This document shows, in pieces, positions 4,777 through 24,456 of a stretch of DNA of 64,000 bases. The translations under genes were made by a program, and so were the position numbers. Position 1 is the stretch's first letter. The number at the start of each line of letters is the position of its first letter. The stretch is from an uncultured Clostridium sp. GTDB taxonomy: Bacteria; Bacillota; Clostridia; TANB77; CAG-508. The DNA is taken from assembly GCA_900554565.1 (NCBI GenBank), contig USHX01000002.1:16100-80099 (forward strand), in the 5' to 3' direction. Below the pieces are notes generated by a model. It was not told the origin of the DNA. It searched no databases and worked only from the letters and a program-made list of their open reading frames with translations.

Positions 4777-6210
4777 ATGAAAATAGGAATAGATATAGAT
4801 AATGTTATTTCAAACTTTAATGAACAATTATTAGAAGAATATAAAAAACATGATAAAGAGCTAAGAAACACAGGAATTATAAATGAAAAAGCAGAGTATA
4901 TAAGAAAGAATATGTTTGATTGGACAGATGATGAAGAAAAAGAATTTTATAATAACAACATAGAAAAAATTGTCAAAAATCTAAAGGTAATAGATGGAGC
5001 AAAAGAATATATAGAAAAATTGAAAAATGATGGACATAAGATTTATATTATAACAGGAAGAGACAATGGAGAATATACGGATCCATATAATATGACAAAA
5101 GAATGGCTAGAAAAATCGGGAATTTATTATGATAAATTAATTTTAACAAATGCATATAAAAATCAGGAAAATGGAAAAACGAAAAAATGCTTAGAAAATG
5201 ATATAGATATCATGATAGACGATTCGGTACATATTTGCCAAGATTGCATAGAAAACAGTATAACTACACTTTTAATGGACACTCCATATAACAAAAATGT
5301 AGATATTCAAAGAGTTTATAATTGGAAAGAAATATATGATTTTGTTAATGAATATAAAAAAGAGAAAGTAAATGTTATATTAGATACAGATACCTATAAT
5401 GAATGTGATGACCAATTTGCACTTGCATACATGATAAAATCACAAGATGTGTTTAATATAGAAGCAATAACAGTAGCACCATATTCAAATAAAGAAAAAA
5501 ATGTAACTGTTGCAGAAGGGCAAAAATTAAGTTATAACGAAATAATAAAAATATGCAAATGGACAAACTTTAATACTGAAAATAAAGTTTTTAAGGGTTC
5601 AAGAGATTATATCTCAAATGGTTATAATGAAAATAGTGAAGCGGTTAATAAAATAATAGAGATAGCTTTAAAGAATGAAAAAACATATATTATGGCAATA
5701 GGAGCACTTACTAATGTTGCACTAGCAATAAAAAAAGAACCTAAAATAATAGAAAAATTAGAAATTGTATGGCTAGGTGGACACAGTTTATTACAGAATA
5801 ATAATGAAGAATTTAATTTTATGCAAGATGTAGAAGCAGTTAGAATAGTTTTTAAATCAAAAGTAAAACTAACAGTAATACCTTGTAAAAATGTAGCTTC
5901 TAATTTGAGAACATCTATATATGAATTGCAATATCACTTGAAAGATAAAAATGATTTATGCAGTTATTTGATAGAAAGATTCCATGATGATGGATATCAT
6001 GGAGTAAAGAATAGGAGAGTAATATGGGATATAGCAGCAGTAGCCTACATGATAAATAGAAATTGGTTTACTGGTACCGAAATTAGTTGTCCAAAAATAG
6101 AAGAAAATACATCATATGAGTTGACAACAAATAGACATAAAATCATGATGATAAATTACATTGAAGTAAATAAGGTATATGAGGATTTGTTTGAAAAGTT
6201 GAAAAAATAG
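4777..6210 (+). CDS. fusion protein: HAD-type 5'(3')-deoxyribonucleotidase-like N-domain plus inosine/uridine-preferring nucleoside hydrolase C-domain
   Basis: N-terminus IGIDIDNVISNF carries the DxDxV nucleophile motif of HAD nucleotidases. The second half starts with the nucleoside-hydrolase Asp cluster ILDTDTYNECDDQFALAYM. The ORF is continuous and preceded by a GGGGA RBS. Confidence 0.7.
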   Translation: MKIGIDIDNVISNFNEQLLEEYKKHDKELRNTGIINEKAEYIRKNMFDWTDDEEKEFYNNNIEKIVKNLKVIDGAKEYIEKLKNDGHKIYIITGRDNGEYTDPYNMTKEWLEKSGIYYDKLILTNAYKNQENGKTKKCLENDIDIMIDDSVHICQDCIENSITTLLMDTPYNKNVDIQRVYNWKEIYDFVNEYKKEKVNVILDTDTYNECDDQFALAYMIKSQDVFNIEAITVAPYSNKEKNVTVAEGQKLSYNEIIKICKWTNFNTENKVFKGSRDYISNGYNENSEAVNKIIEIALKNEKTYIMAIGALTNVALAIKKEPKIIEKLEIVWLGGHSLLQNNNEEFNFMQDVEAVRIVFKSKVKLTVIPCKNVASNLRTSIYELQYHLKDKNDLCSYLIERFHDDGYHGVKNRRVIWDIAAVAYMINRNWFTGTEISCPKIEENTSYELTTNRHKIMMINYIEVNKVYEDLFEKLKK

Positions 6211-19579: not shown

Positions 19580-20962
19580 ATGATACATCAATACAAATTA
19601 AATGGATTTAATATAGTGCTAGATACATATAGTGGAGCAGTGCACTGCGTAGATGACTTAAGTTATGACATAATAGCATTATATGAAAATACTAATAAAG
19701 AAGAAATAATAGAAAAAATGCTTGAAAAATATAAAGACATAACAAAAAAAGATATAGAAGAGACAATAGAAGAAATAGAAAAAATAAAACAAGATGGAAA
19801 GTTATTCTCAAAAGACATATATGAAGGAAAAAATCTAGATTTAAAGAAAAGAGATTCTGTAGTAAAAGCACTATGTCTGCATGTTGCTCATACATGTAAC
19901 TTGAATTGTGAATATTGTTTTGCAGGCCAAGGAAAATATCATGGAAAAGATGCAATAATGAGCTTTGAAGTTGGAAAACAAGCTTTAGACTTTTTAGTGA
20001 AAAATTCAGGGACAAGAAAGAACCTAGAAGTAGATTTCTTTGGTGGAGAACCACTAGTTAATTTTGATGTTGTAAAACAATTAGTAAAATATGCAAGAAG
20101 TATAGAAAAAGAGACAGGTAAACATTTTAGATTTACATTAACAACAAATGGAATGTTACTAGATGATGATGTAATAGACTTTTTAAATAAAGAAATGAAT
20201 AATGTTGTATTAAGTTTAGATGGAAGAAAAGAGATAAATGATGCCAAAAGAAAGAAAATAAATGGTGAAGGAAGTTATGACATAATAGTTCCAAAATTCC
20301 AAAACTTTGTGGAAAAAAGAGGAAATAAAGAGTATTACATGAGAGGTACATTTACTCGCAATAATTTAGATTTTACAAAAGATATATTCCATATGGCAGA
20401 TTTAGGATTTAAAGAATTATCAATGGAACCAGTAGTATCAAGTCCAGATACAGATTATGCATTAAAAGAAGAAGACTTAGATACAATATTTGAACAATAT
20501 GAGATACTAGCAAAAGAAATGATAAAAAGAAGGAAACAAGGAAATCCATTCACATTTTATCATTATATGATAGATTTATCAGGCGGACCATGTATTTATA
20601 AGAGAATTACAGGTTGTGGTTCAGGAACAGAATATTTAGCAGTAACACCAACAGGAGATTTTTACCCATGCCATCAATTTGTTGGAGATGAAAAATTCTT
20701 AATGGGAAATGTAAGAGATGGAGTTACAAATACAGAATTAAGAGATGAATTTAAATTATGTAATGCATATTCAAGAAAAGAATGCAAAGATTGTTGGGCA
20801 AAATTATATTGCAGTGGTGGTTGTAGTGCAAATGCATATCATGCAACAGGTTCAATAAATAATGTATATGAATATGGCTGCAAATTATTTAAAAAGAGAA
20901 TAGAATGTGCAATAATGGTAAAAATTGCAGAAGCAATGGAAGAATCAGAAGAAGTGGAATAA
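19580..20962 (+). CDS. scfB: SCIFF radical SAM maturase (SPASM domain)
   Basis: CNLNCEYC radical SAM cluster and a C-terminal Cys-rich SPASM region (CGSG..., CKDCWAKLYCSGGC). Sits directly after the SCIFF gene. Confidence 0.88.
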   Translation: MIHQYKLNGFNIVLDTYSGAVHCVDDLSYDIIALYENTNKEEIIEKMLEKYKDITKKDIEETIEEIEKIKQDGKLFSKDIYEGKNLDLKKRDSVVKALCLHVAHTCNLNCEYCFAGQGKYHGKDAIMSFEVGKQALDFLVKNSGTRKNLEVDFFGGEPLVNFDVVKQLVKYARSIEKETGKHFRFTLTTNGMLLDDDVIDFLNKEMNNVVLSLDGRKEINDAKRKKINGEGSYDIIVPKFQNFVEKRGNKEYYMRGTFTRNNLDFTKDIFHMADLGFKELSMEPVVSSPDTDYALKEEDLDTIFEQYEILAKEMIKRRKQGNPFTFYHYMIDLSGGPCIYKRITGCGSGTEYLAVTPTGDFYPCHQFVGDEKFLMGNVRDGVTNTELRDEFKLCNAYSRKECKDCWAKLYCSGGCSANAYHATGSINNVYEYGCKLFKKRIECAIMVKIAEAMEESEEVE

Positions 20963-22469: not shown

Positions 22470-22883
22470 ATGAACTTTATAGAAAGATCTGGTTGGAAAG
22501 TTTTAAAGATAGTCTTATTTGGGTTAATAATATACGGCATTATCAATTTTAAATTCATTTTATCTTTGAAAATGATTGGAATATGGCTATTAGTTCGACC
22601 AATTCCTTTTATGTCTAATCTATTGTCAGGAAATAATGGCTGGTTAGATAGTGAAGTAGCAAAATTAGAATATAACATTGATTTGCTAAATACAATGGAA
22701 AAAGATAAAAGAATGACTCAAAATCTTACTCAAGACCAAAGAGAAAACTTTGAGAAACTTTTTAAGGCAATGATAGAAAATGCTGATATAATAATAAAAT
22801 CAGATAAGTATAATGACAAGCTAAAAGGAAAAGCTAGAAAAATGAAAGAAAAAGTAATTGAAAAGCAAAAAAGCCTAAAGTAG
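22470..22883 (+). CDS. hypothetical membrane protein
   Basis: 137 aa with two N-terminal TM helices. RBS AGGAGG. Confidence 0.45.
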   Translation: MNFIERSGWKVLKIVLFGLIIYGIINFKFILSLKMIGIWLLVRPIPFMSNLLSGNNGWLDSEVAKLEYNIDLLNTMEKDKRMTQNLTQDQRENFEKLFKAMIENADIIIKSDKYNDKLKGKARKMKEKVIEKQKSLK

Positions 22884-22935
22884 GGCTTTTTTATTTTTAG
22901 AAAATATAATATCAATATTGATTTTGTATAAAAAA

Positions 22936-22960
22936 TTCCTAAAGTATCTAACTTTAAGAA
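22936..22960. repeat. left arm of 25-nt inverted repeat (candidate inversion site)
   Basis: ttcctaaagtatctaactttaagaa. 21/25 complementary to 23114-23138, with a perfect 13-nt core aagtatctaactt. Confidence 0.6.
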
Positions 22961-22975
22961 TTAAAATATAAAAAT

Positions 22976-23004
22976 ATTATAGCAATAAGTAATACAAAAA
23001 GCAA
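22976..23004 (-). promoter_or_regulatory. strong sigma-A promoter inside the repeat-flanked segment, facing away from the pilin-like gene
   Basis: Minus strand reads TTGCTT - 17 nt - TGcTATAAT. Confidence 0.55.
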
Positions 23005-23011
23005 GAGAAAA

Positions 23012-23047
23012 AATAGCAAAAACTCAAAGTGAATTTTTGCTATTTTT
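23012..23047. terminator. bidirectional hairpin terminator inside the segment
   Basis: Perfect 11-bp stem aatagcaaaaa / tttttgctatt with flanking A and T runs. Confidence 0.5.
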
Positions 23048-23113
23048 GCATAGTTTATAAAAGGAGTAAGGTCAACAAAACGCTGAGGATAAAAGGATTT
23101 AGAAAACTAATAT

Positions 23114-23138
23114 TTCCTTAAGTTAGATACTTGAAGAA
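23114..23138. repeat. right arm of 25-nt inverted repeat
   Basis: ttccttaagttagatacttgaagaa. Ends 29 nt before the P1 ATG. Confidence 0.6.
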
Positions 23139-23166
23139 AATTAGAGAAAAGGAGAAAAAGAGAGTC

Positions 23167-24456
23167 ATGAAAACAAAAGAAACAAAGAAAAACAAAGGAA
23201 TTACACTGATTGCATTAGTAATCACGATAATAGTAATTTTAATTTTGGCAAGTGTATCAATAGCAATGCTAACAGGCAACAATGGAATTTTAACACAAAC
23301 AGGAGTAGCAAAAGAAACGACAGAAAATAAATCAGCAGAAGAAAAAGTGCAATTAGCAATAGTAGGAGCAATGGCGAATAATAAATTGGGATTAACTGTA
23401 GGTGAATTAGAAAAAGAATTAAAGAATTATGGCGGAACGTTAGATGGGAAAGAATTTCCTGTAACTGCAATAGTTGATGGAAAAAGTTTTGAAGTAGACA
23501 GTGAAGGAAATGTGAAACTGCTAAATGGAAATGAAGAGAAGAAAGTAGAACCCGGACAATATGTAAGTGAAACAAAGAAAAATAATTATAAAGATTCAGA
23601 AAATAACACAGCAACAGTACCAGCAGGATTTACAGTATCAGAAATAGAGGGAGAAAAAAATATCTCAACAGGATTAGTAATATATGATATTCCGAAAGAG
23701 AAAATAGAGAATGTAGATTGGACAACAAAAAATGAAGACGGAGCATATAATGTCCAAACTTTGTATAATCAATTTGTATGGATACCAGTAACAAGTGAAG
23801 AAAAATATCAAAGAGATTGTAGTTATCCAGGTAATTTTGATAGTAGTGATGAAAATACATTTACAGATACAGGATATTTGCCATCAAATATACAACCGAC
23901 AACAGATGATGCAACAAATAATGAGACAGCAGAAAGAACGGCGGTATTAAAATATAATGGATTTTATATAGCGAGATATGAAGCAGGAAATGAGAACTCA
24001 AATGTGGTTAGCAAGCAAAATGCAACAGTATATACAAATGAAACTCAACGAAGTTTTAAAATTATAGGAAAAACAATGTATGGAGACAGTAGTACTTATG
24101 TAAAAAGTGCAATATGTTCGGGAATACAATGGGATATGGTAATGAAATTTGTAGATGGAAAAATAGATGGGAATGGAAATACCTATGATGTAAGAACATA
24201 TAATGAAGCTAGACACAAAGGAGATAATGTAGGAGTAGAAAAAACAGGAAACAATATATCAGATAAAGTGCAAAATATATATGACCTTGAAGGCAATTGT
24301 TTGGAATATGTAGCAGAAATAAATATTCTTTATGGTCCGTATGTCTATCGTGGAGGTTACGTCTACGATAGTTATACCAGAGCTAGCGGTCGCTATGGTC
24401 ACGGGGGCTATGCTTACCGCGGCGGAACTTTCCGACCAGTACTTTATATTAAGTAG
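23167..24456 (+). CDS. pilin-like protein P1 (prepilin-type N-terminus, FGE/SUMF1-like C-domain)
   Basis: RBS AAGGAG. N-terminus KNKG|ITLIALVITIIVILILASVSIAMLTGNNGIL looks like a class III leader plus helix, but with Ala at +5. The C-terminal YDLEGNCLEYV, YRGG and TFRPVLYIK resemble the GNVWEW / RGG / GFR motifs of FGE-sulfatase domains (tentative). Confidence 0.65.
   Translation: MKTKETKKNKGITLIALVITIIVILILASVSIAMLTGNNGILTQTGVAKETTENKSAEEKVQLAIVGAMANNKLGLTVGELEKELKNYGGTLDGKEFPVTAIVDGKSFEVDSEGNVKLLNGNEEKKVEPGQYVSETKKNNYKDSENNTATVPAGFTVSEIEGEKNISTGLVIYDIPKEKIENVDWTTKNEDGAYNVQTLYNQFVWIPVTSEEKYQRDCSYPGNFDSSDENTFTDTGYLPSNIQPTTDDATNNETAERTAVLKYNGFYIARYEAGNENSNVVSKQNATVYTNETQRSFKIIGKTMYGDSSTYVKSAICSGIQWDMVMKFVDGKIDGNGNTYDVRTYNEARHKGDNVGVEKTGNNISDKVQNIYDLEGNCLEYVAEINILYGPYVYRGGYVYDSYTRASGRYGHGGYAYRGGTFRPVLYIK

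Follow-up and report, generated by a model that had tools for sequence, protein, structure and literature searches.

In C. difficile, the cwpV switch (Cdi1) and the flagellar switch (Cdi4) are flipped by the tyrosine recombinase RecV. Both are short segments of about 150–200 bp that have imperfect inverted repeats of some 20 bp at their ends and lie in the leader of surface-structure genes, and the recombinase gene resides elsewhere in the genome. The locus described here, also from a Clostridia host, resembles them in these respects, and for its recombinase we likewise propose a gene located elsewhere. Among gut Clostridia, invertons with common repeat motifs have been linked to tyrosine recombinases encoded elsewhere, and surveys put the median number of invertons at about three per Clostridia-like genome (PMC11892184). 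Segment 22936–23138 of the window (the whole stretch of 64,000 nucleotides that was analysed) is probably such a site-specific inversion switch, or inverton, sequenced in its OFF orientation. While this kind of switch is already known, the repeat family to which its arms belong appears to be undescribed; a search of a paper library for the arm motif TCYTNAAGT-N5-ACTTNARGA and for the arm sequences turned up no relevant paper.

An inverted-repeat search returns two arms of 28 nt at 22936–22963 (left, gene-distal, plus strand) and 23111–23138 (right, gene-proximal, minus strand) that are 147 nt apart and complementary at 23 of 28 positions. The 25-nt repeat with 21/25 complementarity and a perfect 13-nt core that had been noted in the initial annotation is present and nested within these arms. 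The window contains the core, AAGTATCTAACTT, at exactly two places, 22942–22954 on the plus strand and 23120–23132 on the minus strand, and all five mismatches between the arms fall outside it. The conserved part of each arm measures 23 nt and corresponds to 22937–22959 (TCCTAAAGT-ATCTA-ACTTTAAGA) on the left and to 23115–23137 (plus strand TCCTTAAGT-TAGAT-ACTTGAAGA) on the right. The left arm is a near-palindrome about an asymmetric centre, 22946–22950, of which the centre of the right arm (23124–23128) is the exact reverse complement. Taken alone, this repeat is at chance level and statistically not unusual. The G+C content of the window is 27.7%, and second-order Markov shuffles of the window contain on average 0.68 repeats at the observed score of 18 (+1/−1), with at least one equally scoring repeat in 48% of the shuffled windows. 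Four other 13-nt perfect inverted cores are present in the window. Because the repeat score is at chance level, the case rests on the comparison with other loci.

The segment between the arms contains a putative sigma-70-type promoter with an extended −10 element, TTGCTT-17-TGcTATAAT, on the minus strand (−35 at 23004–22999, −10 at 22981–22976), which points leftward through the left arm and away from the downstream gene P1. This promoter is found as the initial annotation described it, and we infer its activity solely from its match to the consensus. It was missed by our consensus scanner because its −35 hexamer matches at just three of six positions. In two other assemblies of the same locus (L017 and L082), the position equivalent to 23001 carries a G>T substitution that changes this hexamer from TTGCTT to TTGATT, nearer to the consensus, and L082 has one further change in the promoter spacer. 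The perfect 11-bp bidirectional hairpin previously noted at 23012–23044 is confirmed as part of a larger, terminator-like hairpin at 23009–23047, with 18-nt arms at 94% and flanked by an A-run and a T-run. A predicted intrinsic terminator, also bidirectional, is located at 22867–22892, just outside the left arm and 3′ of the upstream gene of 137 amino acids, which it terminates. Between this terminator and the ATG of P1 at 23167 the scanner detects no plus-strand promoter, which bears out the earlier impression that no good promoter faces P1. The candidate ribosome-binding site of P1 (AAGGAG, 23149–23154, plus strand) is situated 12 nt before the ATG, outside the invertible segment. A search of the window against Rfam returned nothing at gathering thresholds except for one tRNA, and only noise (E < 1) for 22800–23300.

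In the mechanism that we propose, two roughly 25-bp recombination sites in inverted orientation would surround a segment of about 150 bp with a single extended −10 promoter. In the OFF state, transcription would start near 22969 on the minus strand, cross the left arm and end after about 80–105 nt at the terminator (22893–22866), while P1 would be promoterless and silent, shielded by two terminators. Inversion would then be carried out by a recombinase whose gene lies elsewhere in the genome. Strand exchange inside the identical centres would turn the segment round, transferring each coordinate x to 46074 − x. In the resulting ON state, the promoter would be on the plus strand, with its −35 at 23070–23075, its −10 at 23093–23098 and a start near 23105. 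The −10 would thus face P1 from 68 nt before the ATG, in line with the geometry that had been anticipated for the flipped segment. The P1 leader would have a length of about 62 nt and contain the right arm and the ribosome-binding site, and the internal hairpin would come to lie upstream of the promoter, which it could insulate from read-through. The flipped junctions are predicted to read ...AAAAAATTCCTAAAGTATCTAACTTAAGGAAATATTAGTTTTC... and ...TATTTTAATTCTTAAAGTTAGATACTTGAAGAAAATTAG..., so that they would be recognized by reads spanning TTCCTAAAGTATCTAACTTAAGGAAATATTAG or TTTTAATTCTTAAAGTTAGATACTTGAAGAAAATTAG; among the junction-spanning ORFs none is usefully different as a protein marker of the flipped state. 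Ongoing inversion at the window locus and the position of the crossover are likewise what we infer.

The candidate target P1 (23167–24456, plus strand) encodes 429 amino acids with a hydrophobic, pilin-like N-terminus and a C-terminal domain without assigned function. Its match to the Pfam family N_methyl scores 17.1 bits, under the cut-off of 21.2, the residues that follow the Gly are ITLIA with no Glu at +5, and it matches no NCBIfam family. No sequence in the PDB is significantly similar, the best being an archaeal pilin with E = 0.49. An AlphaFold model built from 35 relatives has a mean pLDDT of 69, with low confidence for the N-terminus, and its only notable fold match in the PDB is a weak one to ToxD (PDB entry 7spq, E = 8.5e-3). 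The family of P1 is large, with at least 5688 relatives, and is multi-copy in metagenome-assembled genomes (MAGs) of uncultured gut Clostridia, where about a dozen or more copies are found per genome; many contigs break within these genes. An exact-protein look-up gave no record identical to the P1 protein of the window, and a search of viral contigs found no relatives there. The P1 reading frame is intact and 99% conserved between strains although its present orientation offers no promoter detectable by the scanner, and we count this in favour of a switch. Pilin-like proteins of the uncultured order TANB77 have been tied to immunotherapy response, and those proteins are shorter (PMC11680825).

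We examined what lies upstream of P1 relatives, taken from GTDB genomes and from homologue look-ups. The same module is found at four non-syntenic loci, each time directly upstream of a P1-family gene. Besides the window, these are L025 (CAKOWW010000006.1), L097 and a locus represented by the three contigs L078, L079 and L081. In L025, the arms are at 392–414 and 558–580, and the putative promoter TTGATT-17-TGaTATACT is on the minus strand beside the left arm, corresponding to OFF; the P1 homologue is 54% identical and the module precedes a tandem pair of pilin-like genes. In L097, located upstream of a sigma-factor gene and thrS, arms at 5804–5826 and 5961–5983 enclose the minus-strand promoter TTGACT-17-TGtTATAAT (5873–5845), again in the OFF orientation, and the P1 homologue is 63% identical. 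The L078 locus lies between sua5 and metK and its P1 homologue is 68% identical. Here the arms are at 1782–1804 and 1959–1981, and the promoter TTGATT-17-TGtTATAAT (1914–1942) is on the plus strand beside the right arm and faces the gene, as expected for ON. Three of the four loci (the window, L025 and L097) thus have the promoter pointing away from the gene, and the fourth (L078, L079 and L081) has it pointing towards the gene. In general form the promoter reads TTGnnn-17-TGnTATAAT, always adjoins one arm and is directed outward through that arm. The identities of 54–68% between P1 and its homologues at the other three loci suggest that the four loci represent four different species of uncultured gut Clostridia.

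Related genes also occur with no such module. Three tandem genes of the P1 pilin-like family (373, 414 and 573 amino acids) are found in the window itself at 59351–63500, with no arm motif upstream, and when compared by eye they resemble the tandem pair of L025 in their N-terminal halves. From this comparison, it appears that arm–promoter modules have been acquired or lost at individual loci. Arms are also missing from the closest paralogues of P1 (loci P0003 and P0126, between tsf and pyrH), where a fixed promoter of the same type faces the gene, and we count this too in favour of a switch.

All eight arms of the four loci fit the 23-nt pattern TCYTNAAGT-NNNNN-ACTTNARGA, with a spacing of about 130–155 nt between the arms and 16–83 nt between the gene-side arm and the ATG. 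With up to three mismatches allowed, this pattern occurs in about 667 kb of retrieved DNA outside the modules at only two lone sites. When the window and L025 segments are reverse-complemented and aligned with L078, only three blocks are conserved among the loci, being arm, promoter and arm. The internal hairpin 23009–23047 has no counterpart inside the other modules. A hairpin with A/T-rich flanks is present just outside the gene-distal arm in the window, in L078 (1735–1764) and in L097 (about 5727–5770, also present in L086, a second contig of that locus); it is scored as a terminator in the window and in L078 and not so in L097, and no terminator is found beyond the gene-distal arm of L025.

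Each arm consists of two half-sites of 9–10 nt (TCYTNAAGT) around an asymmetric 5-bp centre; judged by its sequence, it is thus built like a simple recombinase core site. The 23 nt of the left arm in the window match the family consensus at 23/23 positions and are identical to the left arm of L097, and the differences from the left arms of L025 and L078 are confined to the central 5 nt. These centres read ATCTA in the window and L097, ATCAA in L025 and ATTAA in L078, and the two arms of any one locus have an identical, inverted centre, within a stretch of at least 13 nt that is identical and inverted between the arms in each of the four loci. Centres that are matched within a locus and free to vary between loci fit the overlap or crossover region needed for strand exchange. 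The odd length and asymmetry of the centre between inverted half-sites further suggest that the recombinase would be of the tyrosine type. The asymmetry between half-sites (TCC versus TCT) was also considered as a tracer of past inversions and was dropped, as it concerns a single nucleotide with an inconsistent pattern.

The same features can be read in other ways. A 9-5-9 near-palindrome such as each arm forms is typical of repressor operators, and the arms could be paired dyad sites that bind a dimeric regulator, possibly with looping of the DNA. The leftward promoter would then be fixed and give rise to a roughly 100-nt small RNA that stops at the terminator 22893–22866, with P1 transcribed otherwise. 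The left arm does occupy a roadblock position, some 20 nt past the predicted start, and the promoter, with a terminator following at a distance of about 100 nt, looks like that of a small-RNA gene. Paired operators leave unexplained, however, why the centres match in inverted form within a locus and differ between loci, and why the promoter of L078 adjoins the other arm and lies on the other strand. In addition, the leftward transcript is not conserved past the arm, L025 has no terminator there and no Rfam family is matched, so that we consider paired operators very improbable. A second reading takes the arms as the stem that closes a structured leader RNA of P1, since centre differences between loci that preserve arm complementarity are also the signature of a conserved RNA helix. 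There is, however, no promoter upstream of the left arm, and a terminator immediately precedes it. The interior is moreover not conserved and without an Rfam match, and in L078 it is inverted relative to the gene. An RNA stem is the least probable of the explanations considered, and we give it hardly any weight.

The inverted state of the L078 interior is supported by alignment. The interiors of L078 and L097 align with a score of 51 on opposite strands versus 24 on the same strand, compared with a maximum of 38 for shuffled sequences, which confirms that the L078 interior is inverted relative to the other module loci. The module occurs in both orientations and, in the different genomes, at places that are not syntenic, as would also be expected of a miniature mobile element. 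Such a non-autonomous transposon, roughly 200 bp long, would have terminal inverted repeats and an outward promoter and would have inserted beside different genes in either orientation. That one locus exists with and without the module (L097 versus L086 and L087, see below) fits such an element as well. On the other hand, all four copies are directly upstream of a single gene family, with the gene-side arm at the short distances from the ATG given above, and the 64-kb window contains a single copy. The interior is unconserved apart from the promoter, unlike in young MITE copies, and no target-site duplication is visible by eye. A mobile element is for these reasons very unlikely, and the module-less allele itself argues in the same direction.

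This allele is seen in two contigs from other samples, L086 and L087, which cover the L097 locus with nearly identical flanks and have lost precisely 157 bp, comprising the interior and one arm. Where L097 has the full module (5803–5984), a single arm is left (L086, 455–479; L087, 391–415), positioned 16 nt before the ribosome-binding site, and no promoter precedes the pilin-like gene. The change is a deletion, not an inversion. It lies between 14-nt direct repeats, AAAAATCCTAAAGT, that are made by the palindromic half-sites, and as one complete arm is retained, it corresponds to a deletion between these repeats rather than to the empty target site of a mobile element. A deletion running this precisely from arm to arm identifies the arms as sites of rearrangement. 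Together, the conserved arms, their matched centres, the occurrence of both orientations among loci and the arm-to-arm deletion fit a site-specific inversion switch.

Near-palindromic arms are, apart from their 5-nt centres, direct repeats as well as inverted ones, and the switch might conceivably have three states: ON, OFF and permanently promoterless. The same sites would then support both a reversible inversion and an irreversible loss of the promoter cassette by arm-to-arm excision, of the kind seen in L086 and L087, and the OFF promoter might in addition make a functional RNA of about 100 nt. We regard this extension as improbable. If true, a three-state switch would govern members of a very large family of pilin-like surface proteins in uncultured gut Clostridia.

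Within a given locus, the orientation is constant in the available assemblies. Several ENA and Logan assemblies contain the window locus, as does the human-gut MAG GCA_900758285.1. A look-up of the 137-amino-acid neighbour gave six places, of which five cover the switch, all of them OFF; look-ups of P0001 and P0133 added two further OFF copies and that of Asp23 the contig L077, which starts within the 3′ part of P1. Including the window and seven public contigs (L001–L005, L017 and L082), 8/8 copies with an almost identical intergenic region are OFF, although the window may itself derive from one of these assemblies. The L078 locus is ON in all three of its contigs, and no locus was seen in both orientations in these consensus assemblies. 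The invertible-promoter reading of the initial annotation is supported by the comparative data (the arms, the outward promoter and the flipped-type orientation in L078, L079 and L081), with inversion at the window locus itself not seen among the eight copies. A mixed population is expected to break assemblies at the arms. The contig ends that can be placed are elsewhere, at about 22891, 23242 and 23277 and in the 3′ part of P1 (L077), and these consensus assemblies hence give no sign of mixing. As such assemblies report the majority orientation only, the constant orientation and the contig ends oppose frequent or balanced switching, not switching itself.

A constant orientation is also what a fossil or locked switch would give, which had once inverted, accounting for the ON and OFF arrangements among loci, and is now fixed at this locus, for example because its recombinase was lost or fell silent. 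P1 would then be permanently silent or expressed otherwise. The differences between the window arms at 5/28 positions outside the core agree with this, as do the module decay seen in the deletion alleles and the negative outcome of the recombinase search described below. Against it, the two arms still match perfectly over the 13-nt core, centre included, the left arm has kept its full identity to the family consensus and the P1 reading frame is intact and conserved, while majority-rule assemblies hide minority orientations. A locked switch is on balance unlikely, and a functional inversion switch continues to be the reading we favour.

Neither the window nor the flanks of the module loci gave a match in tblastn searches that used two tyrosine recombinases and a serine recombinase as queries, and no recombinase came up when the ORF translations of the window were read, in agreement with what had been remarked initially for the window. 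An integrase in L039 was considered as a possible invertase and dismissed, being of phage type with an excisionase-like neighbour. A scan with the arm pattern of a metagenome collection that does not include this species gave 18 matches, 16 of which come from one unrelated coding locus. The remaining two are located inside a restriction-modification-like gene (L070) and at a lone site near an integrase (L066). The latter, on a 3.5-kb metagenome contig with 31% G+C, is the arm-like sequence TCCTCAAGTATCTAACTTAAGGT at 1532–1554, which is 33 nt upstream of a divergent membrane-protein gene and 320 nt upstream of a gene for a tyrosine recombinase of 311 amino acids (1874–2809; Pfam Phage_integrase, 1.6e-27). 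This arrangement might be a weak pointer to the invertase family, or a coincidence. A corresponding scan of viral sequences returned nine matches (L088–L096, from IMG/VR). In these, the perfect palindrome TTCTTTAAGTATTAAACTTAAAGAA is conserved about 30–45 nt upstream of a giant-virus-type major capsid gene, in its promoter region and beside a late-transcription-factor-like gene. It fits the arm pattern and was judged to be an unrelated resemblance in AT-rich DNA.

Several other features of the window were recorded. A very long, near-perfect hairpin at 48370–48600 has a 28-nt perfect core (48392–48419 and 48549–48576) and a nested repeat (48436–48471 and 48498–48533), and as RNA it would fold with −78.8 kcal/mol (z = −11.8), with no match in Rfam. 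It is located between a Crp/Fnr-type regulator gene (47655–48299, minus strand) and nrdD (48787–50913), and the palindrome GTTGCATTTGCAAC flanks it at 48331–48344 and 48702–48715, the first copy overlapping a promoter-like site. Genes resembling priA (15460–17257), uvrA (31412–34244) and hisS (45672–46980) each appear to be broken into two overlapping ORFs in different frames, which suggests that the assembly contains indel errors or that the frameshifts are real. At 19252–19434 a short peptide rich in Cys (…GGCGECQTSCQSACKTSCGVANQKCE…) is encoded, followed by a radical SAM/SPASM enzyme at 19580–20962, recognized by Pfam matches. With the peptide recognized by eye, this pair looks like a SCIFF peptide and its maturase.

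If active, the switch upstream of P1 would impose heritable ON/OFF control on one member of the largest surface-protein family of a bacterium that is known from metagenomes only. A phase-variable member of the P1 family would point to selection by the host immune system or by phages, and the switch would provide a handle on which of the P1-family copies are expressed. The arm motif could be used to find more switches in uncultured Clostridia and, by co-occurrence, their recombinase.

Compared with the known systems, the proposed switch differs from those of cwpV and flgB in the position of its promoter. In the C. difficile systems the promoter is outside the switch and orientation acts after initiation, via termination, whereas here it is inside. 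The repeat sequences are also unrelated, and the recombinase is known there (RecV) while none was found here in the window or flanks. With a promoter inside a short element that immediately precedes a pilin-like gene, which would be either ON or OFF, the segment resembles fimS of E. coli, inverted by FimB and FimE of the tyrosine family. It is, however, about 150 bp long with palindromic arms of 23–28 nt and no recombinase nearby, while fimS has 314 bp, 9-bp repeats and adjacent recombinase genes. From the invertons of Bacteroides capsule and surface-protein loci, which a master recombinase flips (Mpi and Tsr families), it is set apart by phylum, by repeat motif, by promoter type (the Bacteroides sigma-A motif versus the TTGnnn-17-TGnTATAAT form) and by the presence of one module per genome fragment examined. 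It shares with those invertons a single repeat motif common to several loci, a promoter inside the segment, an association with variable surface molecules and, if our proposal is correct, a recombinase that acts in trans.
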